From contig JBHIAE010000005.1 of assembly GCA_046758445.1 (NCBI GenBank), positions 40,465 through 104,464 of the forward strand: a stretch of DNA of 64,000 nucleotides, read 5' to 3'. The notes below the pieces were generated by a model. That model saw only the letters and a list, made by a program, of their open reading frames with translations, was not told where the DNA came from and ran no database searches. Below, one piece after another: positions 1 through 43,676 of this stretch. Made by a program: the position numbers and the translations under genes. The stretch's first letter is position 1. Each line of letters begins with the position of its first letter. The DNA comes from Candidatus Thorarchaeota archaeon (GTDB taxonomy: Archaea > Asgardarchaeota > Thorarchaeia > Thorarchaeales > Thorarchaeaceae).

Positions 1-1813
1 CGAGAAAGTCCACGCTCTCTATGTCGTTTCCATACTTGTCCGGATCATTCTCAAGGCGGACCCGAAGGTCCTCATGACCTTCAAAGTTGGTTGCAAGAGC
101 ATCAAGCATCTCTTCCATGGGGATACTCTTCTCTTCAAACACATGTTTCCTTAACATCGAAAGAGAATCTGCAACAATCCCAACTCCAACCCCCATTATG
201 CCTCCGGAGTTGTATCTGACGCCTCCGTCTTGCATTGTCATTCCGTTTTCAAGGCAACCGTCAAGAAGTGCAGATATGAAGGGGGTTGGTGTCATCTTAG
301 AAAGCATACCAGCCGCGATTCTGTCAGCTCTCGTGAGGAGTTCGATCGCATGGTCAATCTGCTTCTCATAGGCCCCCCACAGTTCATCGAACGATTTGAA
401 CTCGTTCGGATCACCAGTTTCTAGCCCTACGAGCGTTCTGCTTCGGGGGTCCCTTCCGTTGTTCAGAGTTATCTCAAGTATCTTAGGCAGATTCACATAA
501 CCGATATTCTGTCTGGCATCTGTCTTGCCTTCGATAATTGGTTCGACACAGCCCAGAATTGAGTAGTTGTGAGCCTCATCCAGGTCTGTGCCCTTGTCAA
601 TCATCGTTGGTATTATGACCTCATCGTTGAAGATCCCTGGCATTCCAAGCCCCTTAGAGACCACATCGACAACTTTCAGCTTGAACTCTTCCGGCGTGCC
701 TTGATGCCATCTGAAAGAAACTGTTGGTTGGGTGACTCTCACGTTCGCCGTCACTTCGAGGACCAAGTCAGTCAGTTCATTACATACGTCTTTCCCTTCT
801 GCGTCCTGACCCCCAATGGTCAGGTTCTGAAACATAGGGAACCCTGCAAAGGCAACACTGTAGTACTCGTTTCTCAGTTTGATGAGCGAGGCGAACTTGA
901 TCCACAGCATTTCAAGAAGGGCAACTGCATCGTCCCTTGTCAGTTCCCCTGAATCGATACTCTTCTTGTAGAGAGGATACAAGTACTGATCGAATCTACC
1001 AGTCGAAATGGAATGGCCATTTGACTCGGTCTGCACCAACAATTGAATGAACCAGAACGACTGTATTGCCTCACGGAAGGTTCTGGCAGACTTGGCTGGC
1101 ACCCTTCGACATATCTCTGCTATCTTCAGTAGCTCTTCTCTTCTGTCCGCATCTTCCTCTTGATGGGCAAGACTCTCAGCCAAGTCAGCAAACCTGTGTG
1201 CGTAGTGAATAATCCCTTCCATAGCAATCTCGACAGACTCGTAGAAATGTTTCTGATTTGTTTCTTCGGCCCGCTTCTTTCGGTCAGATGCTTCCTCGGC
1301 AATCGCTTCAAGGCCTTCCTCTATTACTCTCTGATAATCAACAATGACATGGCCTATTCCCGTTCCAGGAGCTCCTATCGTGAACAGTCCGGCTTTCGAA
1401 GCGCGCTGAGACTCCATCGGCATTTCTTCTTTGCACAGCTCGGAGGTGCTCTTTCCACGCCAATACTCGAACACCTCTCTCAGTGCTTCTTTGTCTTTCT
1501 CGCCTATCTCAAATCTCTCTGTCCTTCTCTTGTTGAATCGGTCCAACTCTTGATTGATCCATGTCCAACTGTATTCCGGGAAGATCTGACAAGAACGGGG
1601 AGTGGGTCCCATGTTTCCAACTATGATCTCTTCCGGCTCTATACGGAGTGTCATGTTGGCGAGAACATGTGAGAAAGCCTTGGCAAGTCGAATCTGTGTT
1701 GGTTCCTCTTCATGACTCATGACGTAGTCTGTGAACCGCCTGGCTCTCTCAGATGATATTGTTGGCTGAGCCTCTAACATTCTATCGCGCAAGCGACCGG
1801 TCCGAGAGTTCAT
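1..1813 (-). CDS. Glycyl-radical enzyme (PFL2/diol-dehydratase-like), 3' end beyond the left edge
   Basis: Manual translation from ATG 1813 (MNSRTGRLRDRMLEAQPTISSERARR...) is open to the window edge. It contains FPEYSW, TGIGH, ESNGHSISTGRFDQY, FAGFPMFQNL and catalytic GCVEP (Cys codon 548-550). Absent from the ORF track because it has no stop in the window. Confidence 0.93.
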   Translation of the reverse strand, partial: MNSRTGRLRDRMLEAQPTISSERARRFTDYVMSHEEEPTQIRLAKAFSHVLANMTLRIEPEEIIVGNMGPTPRSCQIFPEYSWTWINQELDRFNKRRTERFEIGEKDKEALREVFEYWRGKSTSELCKEEMPMESQRASKAGLFTIGAPGTGIGHVIVDYQRVIEEGLEAIAEEASDRKKRAEETNQKHFYESVEIAMEGIIHYAHRFADLAESLAHQEEDADRREELLKIAEICRRVPAKSARTFREAIQSFWFIQLLVQTESNGHSISTGRFDQYLYPLYKKSIDSGELTRDDAVALLEMLWIKFASLIKLRNEYYSVAFAGFPMFQNLTIGGQDAEGKDVCNELTDLVLEVTANVRVTQPTVSFRWHQGTPEEFKLKVVDVVSKGLGMPGIFNDEVIIPTMIDKGTDLDEAHNYSILGCVEPIIEGKTDARQNIGYVNLPKILEITLNNGRDPRSRTLVGLETGDPNEFKSFDELWGAYEKQIDHAIELLTRADRIAAGMLSKMTPTPFISALLDGCLENGMTMQDGGVRYNSGGIMGVGVGIVADSLSMLRKHVFEEKSIPMEEMLDALATNFEGHEDLRVRLENDPDKYGNDIESVDFL

Positions 1814-33002: not shown

Positions 33003-35015
33003 GTGGTGAGTCTACAATTGGATGGAGATGCTGAGCCAACACCCGTGAGGGGGACTGCACTCCTAGTTATCACCATCATCATTGTCGCTATTTCTCTGGG
33101 CGCCGCCGTACTACCACGAAATGGACCTACACCGGATCTTAGAGTTAGAGTTGCAGTCATTGACTCAGGTATCACGAAAGACGGAGAGCTTCTTGCGAGA
33201 GTTGTGGCAGAAACGAGCTTCATAAACTCAACCTTCGGCTACAATGCAGTGGACAACTCAACTGAGGATAGCCAACCTAATGGTAGTCCGCATGGAACAT
33301 ATGTTGCAAAGATACTCTCGCGCAAAGCCCCGGATGCCGCCATTGTCAATGCGAAGGTCGTAACGGCGAACAACACCGCAACTATTGAGGGCATCATCAG
33401 CGCGATTCGCTGGGCTGTTGACGAGGAGAACTGTAGCGTCATCAACATCAGTCTCGGCACTCTTCCAACCACGAAGAGTCAACTAGGTGAAGTGGTGAAA
33501 TGGGCATTTGAGAGGGGTGTTTCGATTGTGGCGGCTGCCGGAAACAACGGCATGGGTGGGGTGGCTGGGACCTCGATCGAATCCCCTGCAGTCAATCCAG
33601 AGGTTATTGCAGTGGGTGCGACTGATGACAGAAACAGAATATACGATTTCTCGGCGAGAGGACCCCTCTGGGACCGGACCATCAAACCTGACATAAGTGC
33701 ACCCGGTTTCTATACAGAAAACGGGGTTACCGTGTTCGGGACTAGCTATGCTACTCCTGTAGTTTCAGCGGCCGCCGTCAGACTCATCGAGTTCTGCGAA
33801 GAGAATGACCTATCTTGGACACCGGGTATGATAAAGGCCACATTACTGGCAAGTGCAACTCATCTCTCCGTAGAAGAATGGGAAGTAGGGGCGGGTGTTG
33901 TTGACTTGGTTGAAGCCCTGTCCTTGATCGAGAACGCAATGGAAAGCGAAGGCCTTCCACAGATTGCAGCACTCTCTCCAACCTCCGGTCCTTTTAGCTT
34001 TGAACGTTGGTTTGTGAATTCTACCACTCACGTGTCTCTATCAGTGTTTTGCAGCAACATCACGACATTCTCGATTCTCTATGCAGGCTCTGCTTCGGAA
34101 TGGGTGACGGGACCCCAAAACGTCACCGCTAATCAGATCGGCAAATTCCACTTTGAAATCAGAGTCGTGGCGAACGAAACTCAAAACGATCTCGACCTAG
34201 AAGTAGTTCTCATCTCTCCCGGCTACAGCTTCCTCAGAGCAAGTTTCACCTTTGACGCAGCATCTCCTCAGGCAAGGATTGCATTTGATTTTAGTCATAC
34301 TCCATGGCTCATTGATTCCATCTATGGACAGTTCAAGAGTATGTACGAGCTGATTACACAGGCAGGAATTGCAGTCGAGGAGATCAGGTTTCCACAAGAG
34401 ATCATTTCAAAGAATCTCACCGAGTATGATGCAATCTTCATCGTGGATCCTAGTGCTTGGTACTATTCAATGCTCGACAACGAAACCATTCCCGCTCCTA
34501 TTTTCTCATATTCCCCGGCGGAGATTACATCGTACACGGACTATTGGAATGCAGGTGGAAGCCTCATTGTTTTGGGACTTGGGAACTCCAGCCTCAACCT
34601 ATCATCAGCGAACGAGCTACTTTGGCCATTTGGATTTCAATTGAATTACGATCAGATACCGGCCGTCACAATTGTTGTGAATGGAGTATCCTCCACCGAA
34701 TTGATAACGGACATACAGGAGCACAACGCGACCTCTGGAATAGGTTCTTTCGATTTCAACGGTTGCTCAGTGAACTACACTGGAGGAGCCTACTCTCTGG
34801 CTCAGACTGAGGTCAGCTTTCTTCTTACCAACGGTTCGCTGAGTCAGGAGAACCGAACGGTCATGGCTGCACTAGAAGGAGCAGGTGGAGGAAGAATGAT
34901 TGTGTCTGGCAGCAATTTCCTGTTTGACAATTGGGGAATATCAGGCGGATACCAATCCGATCAGAATGCGCTTTTTGTTCTTCAGATTACAAAATGGTTG
35001 ACAGGCATTATTTGA
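33003..35015 (+). CDS. Membrane-anchored S8 subtilase with C-terminal GATase1-like domain (site-1-protease-like architecture)
   Basis: N-terminal TM; triad VIDSG / PHGT / GTSYATP and oxyanion AAGN; C-terminal IAFDFSH...GGSLIV...NELL...GGGRMIVSG. Confidence 0.88.
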   Translation: MVSLQLDGDAEPTPVRGTALLVITIIIVAISLGAAVLPRNGPTPDLRVRVAVIDSGITKDGELLARVVAETSFINSTFGYNAVDNSTEDSQPNGSPHGTYVAKILSRKAPDAAIVNAKVVTANNTATIEGIISAIRWAVDEENCSVINISLGTLPTTKSQLGEVVKWAFERGVSIVAAAGNNGMGGVAGTSIESPAVNPEVIAVGATDDRNRIYDFSARGPLWDRTIKPDISAPGFYTENGVTVFGTSYATPVVSAAAVRLIEFCEENDLSWTPGMIKATLLASATHLSVEEWEVGAGVVDLVEALSLIENAMESEGLPQIAALSPTSGPFSFERWFVNSTTHVSLSVFCSNITTFSILYAGSASEWVTGPQNVTANQIGKFHFEIRVVANETQNDLDLEVVLISPGYSFLRASFTFDAASPQARIAFDFSHTPWLIDSIYGQFKSMYELITQAGIAVEEIRFPQEIISKNLTEYDAIFIVDPSAWYYSMLDNETIPAPIFSYSPAEITSYTDYWNAGGSLIVLGLGNSSLNLSSANELLWPFGFQLNYDQIPAVTIVVNGVSSTELITDIQEHNATSGIGSFDFNGCSVNYTGGAYSLAQTEVSFLLTNGSLSQENRTVMAALEGAGGGRMIVSGSNFLFDNWGISGGYQSDQNALFVLQITKWLTGII

Positions 35016-35018
35016 AAC

Positions 35019-35402
35019 TCATAGGAGCGGTGCGATGTTCTCACAAGCAGTTTTTGCAGCATATACTAGAAGCCCTGTCTTCATACTCTTACCTGCAGCA
35101 AGAACTAGAATCGCCTTCTCACCTGCGCTCTTCATTATCATCAGGCCAGATTCGTTCGTGAGAAGGACCTCCTCTAGAAGCCCCTGGTCCATCCTCTCTG
35201 CGGCCAAGTCGGCGACTCCCAGAATTGATGCCGCCATCGCTGCAATCTCCGCTTCCTCAAGTCCCTGTGGCACAGCACATGCGATAGGTAGGCCCTCCTT
35301 GGAGAGAAGCATCCATGCTCTTATTCCCGTGGCAAGCGAAGTGGCCTCTTCCATTATCTGACGAAGTTTTCCCTGCAGTTCCTCGAATGCGGGGTCGAAC
35401 AC
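35019..35402 (-). CDS. Roadblock/LC7 domain protein
   Basis: LLSKEGLPIA, IAAMAASILG, LDQ-like MDQGLLEEVLL, KSAGEKAILVL; GGAGG before the GTG start. Confidence 0.92.
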   Translation of the reverse strand: MFDPAFEELQGKLRQIMEEATSLATGIRAWMLLSKEGLPIACAVPQGLEEAEIAAMAASILGVADLAAERMDQGLLEEVLLTNESGLMIMKSAGEKAILVLAAGKSMKTGLLVYAAKTACENIAPLL

Positions 35403-35648
35403 GGTGGCCTACCTCCTCACTATCCTTACGGCGGAAAGGTGAAGGAAATGCGCATTAATAAAGTTTGATAACATAGCTTCATGGAACAAAACAAGATGGC
35501 CCAGTTTCACGAAACAACATGTGCGTTGATTGTCAGACATGATGGATGATATGCCATTGAACCAGGAACGACTCTATTAGGGGGCGTGCCTGGCTCTAAC
35601 CTATGTTTCAAGATAGATATAATGTCCTCATGAAATGGCCAAGATGTG

Positions 35649-36485
35649 CTATGGTTCTACCCAGAACATCCTATCCCTGATCTCTTCAATTGGAGTTGAC
35701 CAAGTGTGGTCCTTCAAATCAGCTTGAGCCATCAACGGAACTTCATCATCAATCATGAATGACTCAAGATGTCCGCAAAAGAAGAGTGACGTGATATCCA
35801 CTGTCTTCATCAAGTTGTCACTGATGTCCAGCCAGAGCAGGTTCTCGCATTCCATCAGTGGAAGCAGATCGATCTGCAGTATCTTCGTATTCCGCAGCCA
35901 GAGGCCTTCAAGCGATGCGCAGCTCCTGAGTGGCGAGATGTCTATTTCATCAAATCGGTTATTCTCCAGAAACAACTCTTGGAGGTTTGTGCATTTCGAC
36001 AATGGTCGCAAGTCCACGCCAATCAGTTCATTGTTGTCGAGTCTCAGGAATCTAAGAGCTGAGCATTTGCTGAGAGGTGACAGGTCTAGGATCGAAAAGC
36101 TATTGGATTGAAGATTGAGTTCTTTCAGACGTTTGCACTTCATCAAAGGTGTTAGATCAATTCGCTGTAGTCTATTCATCTCTAGTGAAAACGTGTCAAG
36201 GCTCTTGCACTTCCCAAGGGATGTGATATCAATTAATGCGAGGAGATTTGAGCCGAGAGAGAGTATTTCGAGGTCCTGACATTTTCCGAGTGGTTCTAGG
36301 TCAATGCTGCTGATAGAGTTGCTTGACAGATTCAGCTCTCGTGGATTCGGGCATTCTGCTAGGGGTGAAAGATCGACTCCTACTATGTTTCGACCAGACA
36401 GATCCAATTCGGCCGTGTCATCACCCTTATCGAGATGCAGCTCCTCTCCACTTTCATTCGTGAAGTTGACACGTATATCAGGCAT
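35649..36485 (-). CDS. Leucine-rich repeat protein
   Basis: About 9 repeats of 22 aa, LxxLxLxxNxlxxiDlxPLxxCxx. Confidence 0.92.
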   Translation of the reverse strand: MPDIRVNFTNESGEELHLDKGDDTAELDLSGRNIVGVDLSPLAECPNPRELNLSSNSISSIDLEPLGKCQDLEILSLGSNLLALIDITSLGKCKSLDTFSLEMNRLQRIDLTPLMKCKRLKELNLQSNSFSILDLSPLSKCSALRFLRLDNNELIGVDLRPLSKCTNLQELFLENNRFDEIDISPLRSCASLEGLWLRNTKILQIDLLPLMECENLLWLDISDNLMKTVDITSLFFCGHLESFMIDDEVPLMAQADLKDHTWSTPIEEIRDRMFWVEP

Positions 36486-36881
36486 GCGGGGAGCCTCAGC
36501 TAGTTTCTTCCTTTGTTTCGCAACGTTCGCAGGATGAATGATTAGGTTTCACTTTCTGATTCATGTGGAACGCGTCTTGACTCATGTACGCACTCGCCAT
36601 TCTCTAACGCATCTCTGGCTGAATCGGGGACCTCGGACCCGTCTTATAAGACTGTGATAGCCTTTCTATGTCTGACATTCTCTCAAAAGAATTCGTTGGG
36701 AATTAATCTGGGTAATAGCTCAAGCTGAAGCCATTTGAGCGCCATACACGACAAGGATAGAAGAAATCGACCCGCCCCTTCTGATGATCGGGGGTAAGAC
36801 ATCGTTCCATCCAATCCTTCACAATTGACTGCGCTTCAATTCCTTGCAGGAGTAGACTGTGGATAGGGCGGAGCCAAGGCA

Positions 36882-39800
36882 ATGAGAAGAAATGGATTAG
36901 TCTTCATGTTTACTGTTGTCCTATTTGGATTCATTTTGTCAATGCCAACTAGCTCCTTCGTGTCTATTGGAGCACAGAATCTTGATCAGCGTCCTTATTC
37001 GAAGTATGAATTGTCGGGGTTTGGCGACAACCTAGAGGACTTTGTGGATCAGACTTCAGACCTTCACGCACCGGCGGACTTGGGCACACACTCGACATTT
37101 TCGGATATCCAAGACTATGGAGTCAACTACGACCAAATGCAGGAAGAAGACACAGGTGGCATAGGTGGCGGGGTCCTAGTTGAAGACTACCTAGATCAGA
37201 CAAGCGACGTTGATATTTCGCCAGACTTGGGCAGTCACGGTGCATTTGCAGACCTTCAAGATACCGATGATACCTACGACCTGCTGTCAGAGGCTCTGCC
37301 TACGGCGCCTCCTGTTTTCCAAAGCAGTGCAGAGTCTTGGTCTGCAGTAGGTCAAGCTGGCCACAGTTTCAACTACACTCTTACTACCTTTTCTGGCGAT
37401 AATCGACTTGTTGTTGTTGGAGTCGCTTGGGAAGACGCCGAGGCAACTGCAGATGTTACAGATATCACTTTCAACTCTGTATCAATCGCTACAGAACAAA
37501 TCGCAGAGATAGTCGCTGATGTAGGATTCTCTACGTATGTGGCTGGTTGGTATATACTTGACGCGAATCTGCCTTCAAAAGCTGGGTCCTACAACATAAC
37601 TGTCACTGTAAGTGAAGCTATAACAAGAGAGATCATGGTGTTTGTAGCAGAATACACCGGAGTCGAACAAGAGGCGCCTGACGACACAGGAAGTCACCAG
37701 ACACCGAATCCAGGTGATACGACCTTCACAGTCACCGCGAACGAGGACAATGCATTGATTGTTGCTGTTGGGTGTACTGGGGGAACAACCTCCATGACAT
37801 CGGTGACTGGTGGTATCAGCAACCACGAGGATGTATCCGATCCTACAGTTACTTCAGAGGGTGGTGCAATAGCGGACTATATTGGTGCAACATCAGGTGA
37901 CCACACTGTTGGTTGGACTGGACTTGCTACCAGAGCCTGTTCGATCGGTGGTGTCTGGAGTGGTGCTGCCAGTTCATCCGATTATCAGATGGACCTAGAG
38001 GTTCAGTTCACGACAGTTGTCGATTTCTTGATAACTGAAGAGTTGTGTATTAAGACGGGGACATTCTCAGGCTCAGAGGACATCAATGTCACATATTGGA
38101 GCGGGTCTTCTTGGACAAGCATTGCCTCCGATTTGACTGCTAGTCAGTGGAACAACTTCACAGTCTCATTGACAAGTTCAACCTTCGCAATCAAGTTTGG
38201 TGGATCGTCCACAACCTCTGATGCAGTGTTAGACACTTGGAACATTGATTCAGTCCTACTTCAGGTTTCAGGAGCTGGATCGAAAGAGGACGTAGTGGAT
38301 GTACAGAGCGATGTAGATGGTTCTGCTGATGTTGGGACTCACAGCTCATTTGCAGAGATGCAGACCGCCGACCTCACGTATGATACATTGACGGAAATCG
38401 ACACCGCCGGTTCACTGTCAGGAACTGTCGGCTACACGTTTCCAGGCTTCACCGATCTAAATCAACTTGAGATAAATGAGATAATACTCTGTCAGTTCTC
38501 TCTTGGAGAAGACAATGTCAACGTGTATAGCATGAGTGCTTACGGAAGGATTGATGCCGGCTTTGGTACAGAAGTAGTCAGATATCTGATATACGCTGAC
38601 AGTGCTGGTTCCCCTGGGGCCTATCTAGGCCCAACCAACCAGGGCACTTGGACCGCATCAGCAAGTTGGACTACATTAGATATGGAAACGAATCTCACTT
38701 TGAGTTCTGGCGATTATTGGCTGGGCCTATGGAGCAATGACGAGATAAGGCCCTACTATCAGTTCGGTGCAGCTGGTCAGACTGCCATGAACGTGAGTAG
38801 CAGTAGCTATCCTGCACAGCCGGATCCATTCGGTTCCGTCACTGAATGGCATAATCGGGAGGTTTCAGTGTATTTCAGTTGGGACAAGGATCTTCCAAAT
38901 AACTATGAACTCGATCTTGAGGTTCAATTCACTGATATTCCATATCTGTTGCCTGTTGAGAAGCTCTGCATTTACGCGGGAGCCGTTGATGCCGAGGACA
39001 TTATTGTTCAAATTCGGACTGATGGTGGCACATGGTCAAACGTAACTACTGATCTGACGGGCTCATCTTGGAACAATCACACGATCAAACTCAATACCAC
39101 CACCCTGACCATACGTTTCATCGACGGTACGCCGACCGGTGATACTAGTCAGGGAACATGGCAGATTGACATCGCTCTGATGTATCTCGAACATCCAGGT
39201 GGCGGTGCTGGCTCCATTTCATTTAGGGCCTTTGCAGCCGCAGTCGGACAAGACACCACTTCTGTCATAATCAATAAACCCAGTGGAACGATACAGAACG
39301 ATGTGATGGTGTGTACGGTCTTAACTACCGGTGGAACTGGAGTGACTTTCACGCTGACAGGATGGACTATCATTCAACGACACGATAGCGGAACAACACT
39401 CGCTCAGGCACAGTATTACAAGGTCGCAGGTGCAAGCGAACCAGCAACATATACCATTTCATTCAGTCCACAAGTTGTTGGAGCGGCTGTTGGTATCGCA
39501 ACCTACATTGGAGTGGACACCACAACTCCAATAGACGCGTACAGTGGGCAGGTAAATGCTGCATCCACAAGTGTCACAGCCCCTTCTATCACTACGACAT
39601 CAGCAAATGCTATGCTAGTAGGAGGATTTGGGACTTTCGTACAGACTACTATCACACCAGCCACAGGCATGACAGAACGCTATGATATTGTCGGTGGAAT
39701 CGGTGGTGACGACCAAATAACGGATGAGGTAGCTGATGAAGTAAAAGCCACAGCAGGCGCAACTGGAACACGAGTAGCCACTGCAGGACTAAGTGCGGTT

Positions 39801-42800
39801 AGTATCGGACAACTGATTGCTCTGAAACCCGCTGCACCGACTAACTACATGCTAGACCTAGAGGTTGGATGGACGGCAGCCGATTTCGATGAAACGAATG
39901 AGGAATTATGTATCTATCCAGTCACAGGTGGTGGTTGGCCTTCTGAAGACATCAAGGTGGATGTCTGGAATGGTGCATGGACCAACGTGATAGCAGATCT
40001 CACTCCTGACCAATGGAACAATGTGAGCATTAGCAATTATCTTGCGGGGATTACATTTGAGATTCGTTTTCTTGGTGGAACTGAAACAAGTGATACAACT
40101 CAGGATACTTGGGAGATTGATGCAGTTCTGCTTCATACATGGACACTCAGCTACGCTCCGGCGAATGATCAAGCACCAACTTTGGACAATCCAAGCGACA
40201 CTGACAATATGTATGCTCAATATCTAGAGTATCAGGTCACAGTCTTTGTTTCTGACCAGAATGGTTTCGCAGACATAGACTACCTAGAGATCGGATTATG
40301 GGACAATAGTCAAACTACAGAATACTGTCGATTCAGATACGATGAGGATACAAATACATTCACTGAGGAATATGATGGTGGGACCTATGTGTCCCTCAAT
40401 TCAGGAGGCTCCTCGGCAGTTGAGAGTGGTAATGACATTGATGCAACTTTCTACTTCACTATAGATTGGGACTTCCCTGATGCCACAGATCTTGATGCAC
40501 AATGCTACGTCATTGATACACAGACGGAATCAACCAACACATGGTTTGAGGTCGATTGGGACGTGGAAACACGTCTGGACTACTCTGTCACTCCAAGCAT
40601 AGATGATGGCCTTGGTACACCTGACAGAGGCAATCTAGACGGTTCCTTCTCATTGACTGGAACCGTTGTCTACTACATGTCAGTAGATGACAATCCATCA
40701 TCCGCTATTGTCGATGTATTTGTATCAGGTTCTGAATACGGAACAAACGCAGGCCCCTGGAACGATTTGACACTTAGTTCGGGGGTCTTTGATGTAACGT
40801 GCTATGCAGACGATCTAGTAGGTCAAGATACTTACACAGTCAAGGTTGTTGAGGAAGGAGCAGGTGCGGGCGGCACGGACCTTTACTACTCAACAAGTGT
40901 TACGGACACATACATAGCAGATAGTGTTCAGGTTCAATCCTACTCTGTTGGTGATGATAGAGTAAACGTAAATGATAATGTGAATATTGATGTGACTCTG
41001 TACTATGACTACGATGATACAGTTGTTACAGATGGGGCAGTGACAATCAATACTATATCCGCGACTCACCAGGGTGCAGGTGTCTGGAGAATCACTGACT
41101 CAGAAGCAGCTGTAATGGCGAATACCTACGACATTGTTGCATATTCTGGTGGAATCCATGGACTCGCCAATGTTGACCAAAATGGACAGTCCCAGCAAGT
41201 AATCTGGGATCAGATTGTGGTGCAGACAACCGTTGCTGATGATACACGTGTCAACATCAATGACAATGTTGAGGTGCGAGTCACTCTCTGGTTGGCCTAC
41301 AACAGCTCATTCCTTGGAGCTGGAGATAGTGTCACACTTGACGATACACCAATGACTTGGGATGCAGCCAACTCTTGGTTCGATCTGACTGTATCACAGA
41401 CATCTGTTGGTCTATGGACCTACTTTGTCAATGCAAGCACCGAAGCTACCTTTGGAATCACAGCCATTGACACTAACAGTCAGAGCGTGGATGTCATCTG
41501 GGATAGAGTCCTCGTAGCATCCATAGCGATTGATGAAACCTACGTAGACCTGAACGAATTCGTACAGGTAACAGTCCAACTTGAGCATGAGTATGACCGT
41601 AGTTCAGTATTGAGTGGAACATTCGGCATCAACGGTGAAGCGATGACTCACGTAGGCTCAGGAGTCTGGACTGCTGATGTAATGAGGTCTGCATATCAAT
41701 CATTGTCCTTTGATGACTTCACGGAATGCAACGCCGACGCGTACGGAATTACGGGGTATAACATGGATGGCAATAGCGCTACAGCCTACTGGGATAGAAT
41801 CGAATTCTATAGCGGACAGGCCGTCGATGCAAGAATCAATGTTGGCAGCGACGCGACTATCATTTGGGAGGTCCGCCTGGAAACTGCAGGAATCTCAATC
41901 ACCTCCGATCTAACGGCAGTCGCAAGCGGGTCGCTGCCGTTGGTCTTCGTGACTGATAGCTGGAGGATTTCAGACTCACAAGGAAACGTCGGAAGTGCTT
42001 CTTTCTCAATCACATCCGCTTCATTCGGAGGAATTGATGCCTTTGTGCAGACCATAGCAGATGTGACTGTGATATGGGACCGCGTGATAGTTGAAACCAC
42101 AACCGCTACGCCAGTATCTGTCGAAATCAACCAGCCTCTAGAAGTGCATGTGATGTTAGCTTATGAATATGACAATACGCCGGTGACTGATGGACTTGTC
42201 AGTCTTGATGTAGAAGGTGATTCCATTGGGATGACCTACTCGTTGGGAAATGGCTATTGGTCTGCTGATGTTACAAAGTCAGTGGCTGGTGATTACTCAA
42301 TCGTGGTCGCAAGCGTTTCAGGCAATAGCCACGGCATCACCGCACTTAATGTGGATGGAAAACAGGTCGTTGTGCAATTCAGCGGAACCGTCGCCACTCC
42401 TGGAAACCCCTTGATGCTGCAGATTGCCGTAGTAGGTGGTGCTGGGATTGGTTTGGTCGGCACGGCCATCGTGCTAATGCGACGGCGAAGCGCCAGACCT
42501 GCACCCGCCTTAGGCGAAATTGACCCTATAGCGTTTGGAGTAGGTGACCCAACAGCAGCCGAAGCGACTCCTGAGGAGGCCTTTGTAGAGATAACAGCAG
42601 TTACGGTTACTGAGCCGGAGGAGGTTGGAGCTGTTGTGGCGCAGAAGCCGGTCGTTCAGCCTGAGGTTGACACTGAATCCATAGTCGGCGAAGTTGCGGA
42701 ACTAGATGCGGCTGAGGTTTCTCCTGAAGCTCTGGAGATGGAGGAGGCGACTGTTGTCGAGAAACTAGAAGTGACTCCTGAAGAAGTTCCGACTCCCAAG

Positions 42801-42959
42801 GAGATTCCCTCAATTCCAAGGAATCTGGCACGACTTACTAAGAGGGAGCTTTTTGACCTCCTTCCTGATGATATCAAGTCGGCTGCACCAGAGCTCAACA
42901 AGCTCAGAAAGAGGGAGCTACTAGATCTCGTCCGGTCACTCATCAGGCCTGAAGAATAG
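36882..42959 (+). CDS. 2025-aa cell-surface protein: signal peptide, nested beta-domains, Ig-like repeats, TM, acidic tail, HeH motif
   Basis: MRRNG plus hydrophobic leader; three A and three B repeat halves; about 5 repeats ending (V/Y)IWD; TM LQIAVVGGAGIGLVGTAIVLM-RRRS; E/P/V-rich tail. Confidence 0.9.
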   Translation: MRRNGLVFMFTVVLFGFILSMPTSSFVSIGAQNLDQRPYSKYELSGFGDNLEDFVDQTSDLHAPADLGTHSTFSDIQDYGVNYDQMQEEDTGGIGGGVLVEDYLDQTSDVDISPDLGSHGAFADLQDTDDTYDLLSEALPTAPPVFQSSAESWSAVGQAGHSFNYTLTTFSGDNRLVVVGVAWEDAEATADVTDITFNSVSIATEQIAEIVADVGFSTYVAGWYILDANLPSKAGSYNITVTVSEAITREIMVFVAEYTGVEQEAPDDTGSHQTPNPGDTTFTVTANEDNALIVAVGCTGGTTSMTSVTGGISNHEDVSDPTVTSEGGAIADYIGATSGDHTVGWTGLATRACSIGGVWSGAASSSDYQMDLEVQFTTVVDFLITEELCIKTGTFSGSEDINVTYWSGSSWTSIASDLTASQWNNFTVSLTSSTFAIKFGGSSTTSDAVLDTWNIDSVLLQVSGAGSKEDVVDVQSDVDGSADVGTHSSFAEMQTADLTYDTLTEIDTAGSLSGTVGYTFPGFTDLNQLEINEIILCQFSLGEDNVNVYSMSAYGRIDAGFGTEVVRYLIYADSAGSPGAYLGPTNQGTWTASASWTTLDMETNLTLSSGDYWLGLWSNDEIRPYYQFGAAGQTAMNVSSSSYPAQPDPFGSVTEWHNREVSVYFSWDKDLPNNYELDLEVQFTDIPYLLPVEKLCIYAGAVDAEDIIVQIRTDGGTWSNVTTDLTGSSWNNHTIKLNTTTLTIRFIDGTPTGDTSQGTWQIDIALMYLEHPGGGAGSISFRAFAAAVGQDTTSVIINKPSGTIQNDVMVCTVLTTGGTGVTFTLTGWTIIQRHDSGTTLAQAQYYKVAGASEPATYTISFSPQVVGAAVGIATYIGVDTTTPIDAYSGQVNAASTSVTAPSITTTSANAMLVGGFGTFVQTTITPATGMTERYDIVGGIGGDDQITDEVADEVKATAGATGTRVATAGLSAVSIGQLIALKPAAPTNYMLDLEVGWTAADFDETNEELCIYPVTGGGWPSEDIKVDVWNGAWTNVIADLTPDQWNNVSISNYLAGITFEIRFLGGTETSDTTQDTWEIDAVLLHTWTLSYAPANDQAPTLDNPSDTDNMYAQYLEYQVTVFVSDQNGFADIDYLEIGLWDNSQTTEYCRFRYDEDTNTFTEEYDGGTYVSLNSGGSSAVESGNDIDATFYFTIDWDFPDATDLDAQCYVIDTQTESTNTWFEVDWDVETRLDYSVTPSIDDGLGTPDRGNLDGSFSLTGTVVYYMSVDDNPSSAIVDVFVSGSEYGTNAGPWNDLTLSSGVFDVTCYADDLVGQDTYTVKVVEEGAGAGGTDLYYSTSVTDTYIADSVQVQSYSVGDDRVNVNDNVNIDVTLYYDYDDTVVTDGAVTINTISATHQGAGVWRITDSEAAVMANTYDIVAYSGGIHGLANVDQNGQSQQVIWDQIVVQTTVADDTRVNINDNVEVRVTLWLAYNSSFLGAGDSVTLDDTPMTWDAANSWFDLTVSQTSVGLWTYFVNASTEATFGITAIDTNSQSVDVIWDRVLVASIAIDETYVDLNEFVQVTVQLEHEYDRSSVLSGTFGINGEAMTHVGSGVWTADVMRSAYQSLSFDDFTECNADAYGITGYNMDGNSATAYWDRIEFYSGQAVDARINVGSDATIIWEVRLETAGISITSDLTAVASGSLPLVFVTDSWRISDSQGNVGSASFSITSASFGGIDAFVQTIADVTVIWDRVIVETTTATPVSVEINQPLEVHVMLAYEYDNTPVTDGLVSLDVEGDSIGMTYSLGNGYWSADVTKSVAGDYSIVVASVSGNSHGITALNVDGKQVVVQFSGTVATPGNPLMLQIAVVGGAGIGLVGTAIVLMRRRSARPAPALGEIDPIAFGVGDPTAAEATPEEAFVEITAVTVTEPEEVGAVVAQKPVVQPEVDTESIVGEVAELDAAEVSPEALEMEEATVVEKLEVTPEEVPTPKEIPSIPRNLARLTKRELFDLLPDDIKSAAPELNKLRKRELLDLVRSLIRPEE
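37035..40142 (+). repeat. Intragenic repeat halves A1, A2, A3 and B1, B2, B3
   Basis: A (EDxxDxxSDxxxxxDxGxHxxFxxxQ...YD) at 37035, 37182, 38286. B (YxxDLEVxxT...ExLCI...ED...WNN...W.ID) at 37983, 38904, 39846. Confidence 0.85.
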
Positions 42960-42998
42960 AAGTTTCGAAGGGTTAATGAACGACTCATTCCACGGTGT

Positions 42999-43676
42999 GT
43001 GTGTTCAGATCTTCTAGATTGGCAACCGAAGTCGGAAGTGGTCATATTGCTAGATATCCATGAGCTAGACTCAGAACTTGGGCTTGGGGATGTTGGTGGT
43101 TGGAAGCGGGGAGTAAGGGTTCTTGGAGTTTCGGAGAGCTTTCTCCGTTCAGACCTGAAGAGCAATGTCGCAGGTGTTGTCATGAGGGGCGACATGCGAA
43201 TCGATGGCGTAGGATTCTGCGAACCAACGGTCGGAGGAACAGATGCAACTGACCAGCTCATATTGATGTTCAATCGACTGGCGCGGGGAGACATTAGGGC
43301 CTGGATGCTGGGGGGCTGTATCATTTCGTGGTTCAATACTGTAAACTCGGTGAGGCTCTTTGAAGCGACAGGAGTCCCTGTAGTGTGTGTTTCTTACAAT
43401 CCGTCGGAAGGGATTGAGAAATACTTGCGCGAGTATTTCCCCAACAGCTGGCAGGAGCGAGTCAGTCAGATGGACAGAGGAGGTCCGAGAGAACAGGTTC
43501 TTCTGAAGACCGGTCATGAAGTGTTTGTCGCGACAGCAGGGCTTACCACCAAGAAAGCACACCGTCTGGTGGATCAGTTCACTCTAGATGGAAGAATCCC
43601 CGAGCCGATTCGTGTTGCTCGTATCCTAGCCTCAGCCCTCAAACGGGATTTCAGCCTGGTCAGTGAAAGAACCTAA
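42999..43676 (+). CDS. DUF99 family (endonuclease V-like) protein
   Basis: RVLGVSESF, AGVVMRGD, VGGTDATD, GCIISWFN, GRIPEPIRVA; true start uncertain. Confidence 0.85.
   Translation: MCSDLLDWQPKSEVVILLDIHELDSELGLGDVGGWKRGVRVLGVSESFLRSDLKSNVAGVVMRGDMRIDGVGFCEPTVGGTDATDQLILMFNRLARGDIRAWMLGGCIISWFNTVNSVRLFEATGVPVVCVSYNPSEGIEKYLREYFPNSWQERVSQMDRGGPREQVLLKTGHEVFVATAGLTTKKAHRLVDQFTLDGRIPEPIRVARILASALKRDFSLVSERT

Follow-up and report, generated by a model that had tools for sequence, protein, structure and literature searches.

A surface protein of a Thorarchaeota archaeon with a probable nested split-domain head

The window analysed here is a 64,000-nucleotide stretch of a Candidatus Thorarchaeota genome (contig JBHIAE010000005.1, positions 40,465 to 104,464), and nucleotide positions below are those of the window. 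On its plus strand, an open reading frame (ORF) at 36882..42959 encodes a surface protein of 2025 amino acids (aa), whose head carries two kinds of repeat, a short A and a longer B, in the order A1 A2 X B1 A3 Y B2 Z B3, with X, Y and Z as intervening modules. This order raises the question of whether A and B are independent links in a linear chain, or the two pieces of a single domain that has been opened to admit other domains, copies of itself among them. Sequence-based classification does not answer it. No Pfam or NCBIfam family was matched at E<=1 by the whole protein or its pieces, no chain was found at E<=1 in a PDB sequence search, and nothing usable for X, Y, Z or the stalk came from these three sources; nor do they place A+B, at the same threshold, in a curated carbohydrate-binding module (CBM) or discoidin family.

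The explanation that we consider probable, taken jointly with all its parts, is that the gene product is a type-I membrane-anchored surface protein of this Asgard archaeon and that nested domain insertion has produced its head (aa 50-1088). As host there would be an unnamed beta-jelly-roll of about 137 residues with a CBM fold, in which the first ~39 residues (A) precede the opening and the other ~98 (B) close it. The loop of an outer host, A1/B3, would hold two further hosts, A2/B1 with cargo X and A3/B2 with cargo Y, as well as an unbracketed third cargo, Z. With such nesting the chain would run out and back, the three binding-type modules would share the distal end of the stalk, and the host would act as a cargo-projecting socket, much as the split domains of RTX adhesins do.

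Bracket order and predicted pairing of the repeats

The repeats were located by windowed self-BLAST and then by profile hidden Markov models (HMMs) built from the copies. The A copies, of about 39 residues each, fall at aa 52-90, 101-138 and 469-506 and share 48-52% pairwise identity (E 1e-4 to 1e-6; HMM domain E 1e-15 to 1e-18), and the B copies, of about 98 residues, fall at aa 367-462, 674-768 and 988-1087 with 34-51% identity (E 1e-16 to 1e-20; HMM domain E 1e-33 to 1e-40). The array begins at 37035 with A1 and ends at 40142 with B3, all of it on the plus strand. A1 (aa 52-90, 37035..37151; A-HMM E 1.6e-16; predicted local distance difference test, pLDDT, 78-90) is the putative N-terminal piece of the outermost host, for which B3 (aa 988-1087, 39843..40142; B-HMM E 1e-40) would supply the C-terminal piece. 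The first inner host would consist of A2 (aa 101-138, 37182..37295; A-HMM E 2.7e-15) and B1 (annotated as aa 367-466, 37980..38279; B-HMM E 1.5e-36), and the second of A3 (aa 469-506, 38286..38399; A-HMM E 2.6e-18) and B2 (annotated as aa 674-771, 38901..39194; B-HMM E 4.2e-33). Two glycine-rich seams mark junctions in this array: TGGIGGG (aa 91-97, 37152..37172), between A1 and A2, and PGGGAGS (aa 772-778, 39195..39215), between B2 and Z. The copy numbers, the order and both linkers are as the first-pass annotation of this DNA had described them.

The same vocabulary recurs in a protein family. An HMMER scan of 1.84 billion representatives gave 6113 relatives at E<=1e-3, and the grammar was counted in 205 retrieved homologues, 135 of them with A/B. 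The closest database relatives are hypothetical proteins from metagenome-assembled genomes of Candidatus Thorarchaeota, the remoter ones come from Promethearchaeota, Heimdall-, Hod- and Odinarchaeota and from Bathyarchaeota, and every member named in its source record is labelled hypothetical. Nesting in the homologues runs from one to six levels, with two in the window protein; the architectures counted are AABB (29 proteins), AABABB (27), AB (13), ABAB (8), AAABBB (3) and AAAABBBB (4), and three proteins have six A copies, a core and six B copies (P0002, P0031, P0080). All 56 homologues with equal numbers of A and B and at least four units are balanced as brackets, whereas after shuffling of the order within proteins (2000 trials) 15 of the 56 were balanced on average, and at most 26. 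In three homologues (P0092, P0122, P0136), A and B are joined in direct fusion, 0-4 aa apart, which shows A+B to exist as a normal, contiguous domain of ~137 aa. The inserts between A and B form at least 29 BLAST-level clusters. A mirror-similarity test, which compares the similarities among A copies with those among B copies, lends weak support to nested over parallel pairing in three- and four-level proteins (r 0.68-0.97 vs -0.78 to 0.59), these proteins being mutually related, and favours neither pairing in the six-level proteins.

The predicted structure is consistent with this grammar. An AlphaFold2 model of aa 45-1095 was obtained from a 40-sequence alignment (mean pLDDT 69.9; predicted template modelling score, pTM, 0.51; model residue = protein residue minus 44), and pairings were read from the first and last aligned residues given by a structural aligner, not from the model coordinates. 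A1, A2, X, B1, A3, B2 and B3 are mostly modelled at pLDDT 80-95, and piece A appears as several short strands with a helical turn. Over model residues 421-425..724-729, which comprise A3+B2, one superposition is on CBM86 (6sgf_A, 129 aa; Z-score 11.7, 123 residues aligned, root-mean-square deviation (rmsd) 2.9 Å), and the same pair also aligns to CBM29, CBM32 and CBM8. A2+B1 is aligned with CBM6 over model residues 56..418 (2cdp_D, 130 aa; Z-score 8.7, 118 aligned, rmsd 3.4 Å) and with 6gff_E over 52..420 (Z-score 8.6, 116 aligned, rmsd 3.3 Å). For A1+B3 the aligned ranges span the entire head model, from 1-5 to 1044-1050, with 1pgs_A, 9euf_H, 6bye_A, 6byg_A, 6ddt_A and 8wab_B as targets (Z-scores 8.2-8.6, 116-137 aligned, rmsd 3.0-4.2 Å). 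Because these alignments exceed, at about 3 Å, the ~100 residues that B alone could provide, each compact domain of the model must include residues of A as well. Targets with tandem CBM-like domains (the F-lectin 3cqo, the CBM22 tandem 4xup and allantoicase) are covered by model residues 52-55..726-729, that is, by A2/B1 together with A3/B2. A Foldseek search of the PDB with the whole head model gave low-scoring multi-domain matches (reelin repeats, template-modelling (TM) score ~0.1) and was little informative.

A deeper member of the family follows the same pattern. P0195, which has four A copies, a 162-aa core and four B copies, was modelled by AlphaFold2 at a mean pLDDT of 78, and single CBMs align to its residues 3..764, 53-54..661-662, 103-104..557-558 and 151..453. 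CBM36, CBM35 and CBM15 align to the core alone (199-224..344-352), which is itself CBM-like, and the ranges correspond to concentric A1/B4, A2/B3, A3/B2 and A4/B1 pairs with the intact core at their centre. No aligned range crosses another, and no range expected from parallel pairing occurs. The A2/B1, A3/B2 and A1/B3 pairing that was to be sought by structure prediction is seen in the head model, and the proposal that A+B is one split beta-sandwich which accepts cargo, its own copies included, is supported jointly by the bracket grammar, the A-B fusions and the two models.

Several points weigh against this interpretation. The A/B pairings and the CBM-like fold are AlphaFold2 predictions, and pTM is modest in both models (0.51 and 0.39). 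In the head, pLDDT is <50 for both Y and Z, and the structural alignments include a few rows with unexpected ranges (338..725 and 19..724, for example). At a strict HMM threshold, 26 of 93 apparently untruncated homologues are unbalanced; many of these were traced to divergent A copies under the threshold, to truncated ORFs, or to intact innermost cores of ~150 aa with a B-like C-terminal part and a different N-terminal piece, these causes of excess B having been checked in part and not resolved for each protein. Finally, the binding function envisaged for the cargo has resemblance of fold and the analogy with adhesins as its whole basis.

Two other ways of relating A to B should be considered. 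The first is complementation in trans, in which the A piece of one chain would complete B in an adjacent molecule, similarly to donor-strand exchange, to give a polymer or lattice. Split beta-sandwiches can in principle be completed in this manner, A1 and B3 are ~900 residues apart in sequence, and pilin-like class III signal peptides are apparent, from reading the alignment, in P0087, P0112 and P0224. However, A and B match in number within single chains and are always balanced among the equal-count homologues, the monomer models close every pair within one molecule at good local confidence, and contiguous A-B units exist, all of which make this alternative very improbable. The second is that A and B are independent linear modules, A an acidic and perhaps calcium-binding spacer and B a stand-alone sandwich, with a bracket order that arose from segmental duplication. 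A is indeed short and acidic, with a conserved SDVD...D.G motif, and arrays of B without A occur in some database entries (P0085, P0133, P0153, P0154); but in P0085, P0133 and P0154 the sequence opens with B itself, which suggests truncation at the N-terminus, and other extra B-like matches are parts of intact ~150-aa cores with a different N-terminal piece. Since a fully balanced order in 56 of 56 proteins far exceeds the ~15 expected, and since the single-CBM structural alignments need residues of both A and B, independent modules are less probable still, and nested intramolecular pairing remains the preferred reading.

Other variants of the architecture are found in the family. P0233-P0241 and others represent a short form, with one split host around an intact ~150-aa core. 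The gaps of ~50 aa in proteins of the form A-50-B.B were considered as divergent A copies and rejected, as their conserved motif is not that of A and, with the B-like stretch that follows, they make up an intact core of ~150 aa; the N-terminal piece of this core carries LWLYVNADDE..TDWTRVGTNPYLDAIDY in place of A. Seven homologues (P0007, P0067, P0070, P0079, P0162, P0244, P0245) have a B followed by an insert of ~134-139 aa and a second, partial B match (profile ~32-99), a sequence arrangement that suggests a second permissive insertion site within piece B. The N-termini of P0087, P0112 and P0224, as read off the alignment only, show a basic stretch, then A/G-V/I-S-P/E-V-L and a hydrophobic run, giving them the look of archaeal class III, pilin-like signal peptides. 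With such starts in some members, the nested head may also sit on pilus-type proteins; the window protein has no start of this kind.

The cargo modules

Cargo X (aa 139-366; 37296..37979, plus strand) is a beta-rich module resembling phage minor tail proteins, is modelled mostly at pLDDT >85, and belongs to a cargo cluster of 32 members (cluster 0). In a search of BFVD with the head model, caudoviral proteins of 218-257 aa, one of them a mycobacteriophage minor tail protein, were matched at TM scores of 0.66-0.79 (rmsd 2.5-4.1); as the aligned range is not reported, these matches are assigned to X because it is the only confident domain of that size. Cargo Y (aa 507-673; 38400..38900, plus strand) is beta-rich, of ~166 aa, and a singleton at the BLAST level. 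Cargo Z (aa 776-985; 39207..39836, plus strand), which lies in the outer-host loop without a bracket of its own, belongs to a cluster of 30 members (cluster 1), and all other members of this cluster but two sit directly between an A and a B. Its nearest clusters in the ESM Atlas are viral (Uroviricota) hypothetical proteins of 209-224 aa (score 0.96).

X, Y and Z had been described as distinct modules, which holds for Y but not for X and Z. The cargo families of the latter two are related at the profile level (hhalign 94.5%, 223 columns), and BLAST aligns the C-terminal ~65 aa of X plus B1 to the C-terminal ~60 aa of Z plus B3 at 35% identity; on these sequence comparisons, X and Z are distant homologues. 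Y is related to a ~164-aa cargo cluster (cluster 6; hhalign 92.1%) and falls in a cargo group of ~160 aa separate from that of X and Z. The X/Z module family is very widespread and has no Pfam model; it is through Z that the majority of the 6113 relatives are matched, many of them through Z alone. The family resembles stand-alone proteins of 210-260 aa from tailed phages, of which one is annotated as a minor tail protein.

Across the homologues, inserts cluster in size near 155, at 215-225 and at 350-460 aa, and one cargo cluster can occur at different nesting depths. A LamG-type cargo is present in P0008, and two cargo clusters of ~155 aa are remote homologues of A+B itself (hhalign 94.6% and 71%). 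By analogy of fold, the cargo looks like recognition modules, and it may bind glycans or other surface ligands.

Exchange of cargo, the locus and the anchor

The closest orthologue, P0247, is a partial Thorarchaeota protein of 937 aa that matches the window protein at 74.5% identity in aa 1-775 and at 86% in aa 988-1147, and skips Z. When the two junctions are compared at the protein level, the end of B2 is followed in P0247 by HPGGG, three residues and B3, and in the window protein by HPGGGAGS, the ~210-aa Z and B3. The absence of Z is thus exact and points to a recent gain or loss of a whole module at the glycine-rich seam in the outer-host loop. The best relatives of Z elsewhere are at most 58% identical and occur in unrelated proteins. 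An indel of this kind between close orthologues means that cargo turns over in evolution, and it provides a concrete example of how such a head evolves.

The gene lies in a segment that also varies between genomes. In four congeners, the counterparts of the subtilase gene (33003-35015) and the Endo_dU gene (42999-43676) are ~560 bp apart; the intervening 8-kb segment, with a leucine-rich repeat (LRR) protein gene and the surface-protein gene, is therefore absent there. The B-bearing genes of those congeners are on other contigs. The segment (35016-42998), in which the LRR-repeat protein gene occupies 35649-36485 on the minus strand, has a guanine-plus-cytosine content of 0.48 against 0.49-0.50 in its flanks, and has the look of an accessory island that varies between genomes. 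Of 24 other genomes searched from the same taxonomic family, 13 yielded the host domain; 16 searched from other families of the phylum yielded none.

The first-pass annotation had proposed that recombination between A or B copies swaps cargo cassettes, and its strongest form, a programmed switch acting at high frequency within the gene or with silent cassettes, is the least probable of the alternatives: it would account for cargo that is very different between homologues, for a closest orthologue that differs by the whole of Z and for the absence of the 8-kb segment from four congeners, but the copies are 60-76% identical as DNA (A, 60-70% over 50 nt; B, 68-76% over 25 nt), no long identical tracts between copies and no tandem DNA repeats occur in the gene, no other copy of B or Z as a donor is present in the organism's own genome (3.25 Mb, 92.7% complete), the Z indel has its boundary in the linker, outside the A and B repeats, and no recombinase, reverse transcriptase or invertase is found among the neighbouring genes scanned (LRR protein, subtilase, Endo_dU endonuclease, HD-domain protein and Rce1-like protease). 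Cargo exchange over evolutionary time is real, and nothing points to a programmed process. Under the nested-insertion model, the family would diversify on that time scale as cargo is gained, lost and exchanged at glycine-rich seams, with no programmed switch involved.

The remainder of the protein has the layout of a fibrillar adhesin, with tandem repeats between head and anchor. At the N-terminus, a hydrophobic stretch follows MRRNG in the translation (Kyte-Doolittle peak at aa 4-24) and probably constitutes a signal peptide or anchor (aa 1-32, 36882..36977, plus strand). Downstream of the head is the stalk (aa 1088-1835, 40143..42386, plus strand), in which windowed self-BLAST delineates about five copies of a ~97-aa repeat from aa 1327 to 1832. 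The stalk has no match in Pfam; in the ESM Atlas, archaeal Big_3_5/MG4 Ig-like clusters are reached at 0.90-0.92 with low recognition, which provides a lead only. A transmembrane helix (aa 1844-1866, 42411..42479, plus strand), apparent from a hydropathy peak and the sequence, is followed by RRR, and then by an acidic putative cytoplasmic tail of 159 aa, rich in E, V, A and P (aa 1867-2025; 42480..42959 with the stop codon, plus strand). The earlier placement of the head on a repeat stalk is borne out by these repeats, the membrane anchor and the tail. Near the end of the tail are two helical motifs of the form L-x-K-R-E-L-x-D-L (aa 1985-1994 and 2008-2017; 42834-42932), which coincide with a 21-nt DNA repeat, D6.

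Relation to known nested and split domains

Among known organisms, the Asgard archaea stand nearest to eukaryotes, and little is understood of their cell surfaces or of the contacts between their cells. The present family shows them building putative surface binders by a systematic, Russian-doll grammar, with at least 29 kinds of cargo and nesting up to six deep. Annotation by linear domain callers will go wrong for such proteins, each host being broken into two pieces that lie far apart. A natural host into which whole domains can be inserted, its own copy included, makes a useful scaffold for protein engineering. A broader proposal, to which we give somewhat less than an even chance, is that A/B constitutes a dedicated self-nesting socket of Asgard archaea and Bathyarchaeota, forming an out-and-back arm one to six levels deep. 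As each socket would have room for one or several modules at glycine-rich seams, lineages could rebuild multi-headed surface binders quickly by gain or loss of whole modules, of which Z would be an instance. Were this the case, recursive nesting would be a general route of surface diversification for uncultured archaea, beyond one protein.

Literature searches found no description of this family in Asgard or Bathyarchaeota surface proteins. The design as such has published precedents: split hosts are known from RTX adhesins, nests from RrgA, and recursive self-insertion from Si3. What is new is an unnamed, CBM-like, archaeal host family, systematic self-nesting of one to six levels in surface proteins, a single host with several inserts, and a cargo indel documented between close orthologues.

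With respect to fold, the predicted A+B domain falls in the CBM-like beta-jelly-roll (galactose-binding-domain-like) class by superposition on solved CBMs. CBM86 (6sgf), CBM29 (1gwk/1wcu), CBM6 (2cdp) and CBM32 are matched over 115-125 residues at ~3 Å (Z-scores 8.7-11.7). At the sequence level A+B differs from them, sharing 4-15% identity and being matched by no CBM family model. The most conserved host residues look structural, and sugar binding by the host itself is putative.

With respect to recursion, the nearest parallel is Si3 of the cyanobacterial RNA polymerase beta' subunit, in which crystallography has revealed a small beta domain, the sandwich-barrel hybrid motif (SBHM), repeatedly inserted into itself to give an elongated out-and-back arm (PMC10895346), and which serves as the six-level case in a survey of 2.7 million domains (PMC13114784). 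As in Si3, one domain family serves in the window protein family as both host and insert over several levels. Si3, however, is cytoplasmic, forms part of an enzyme's trigger loop, and has neither exchangeable cargo nor surface display, and its fold is different: the host of the window protein is not an SBHM of RNA polymerase beta' and is instead CBM-like, within a membrane-anchored surface protein.

The tip pilins RrgA and GBS104 (PDB 2WW8) are a solved two-level nest, D1a-D2a-D3-D2b-D1b, with an adhesive domain at the tip (PMC7893114), which is the same topology as that of family members with AA-X-BB order. The two hosts of RrgA are different Ig-type folds and not copies of each other, its cargo is a vWA domain, and the protein is sortase-anchored in Gram-positive pili; neither nesting beyond two levels nor more than one insert per host is described for this system.

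In the RTX adhesins AhLap of Aeromonas hydrophila and FrhA of Vibrio cholerae, split domains are likewise present, and the cargo binds fucosylated glycans (PMC12077191, PMC10865825). In these adhesins, as predicted for the window protein, a beta-sandwich of a giant surface protein is interrupted near its N-terminus, a domain with adjacent termini, ligand-binding in the RTX case, buds out, and the host fold is then completed; and in both systems, the split domain is at the distal end of a long repeat stalk. For the window protein, the interrupted-then-completed host with a budding domain is indicated by the grammar, the A-B fusions and the model ranges. The RTX hosts have an Ig-like fold that is interrupted after a single strand, whereas the window host matches CBM-type jelly rolls, is split after ~39 residues, and has no Pfam or NCBIfam counterpart. 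The RTX adhesins are type-I-secreted proteins of Gram-negative bacteria; the window protein is archaeal, with a signal-like N-terminus, no match to an RTX family in Pfam, and a C-terminus that consists of a transmembrane anchor helix and an acidic cytoplasmic tail. The further distinction from the RTX adhesins is one of depth, in that the window host contains further copies of itself, with as many as six in homologues, and can accommodate several inserts at once.

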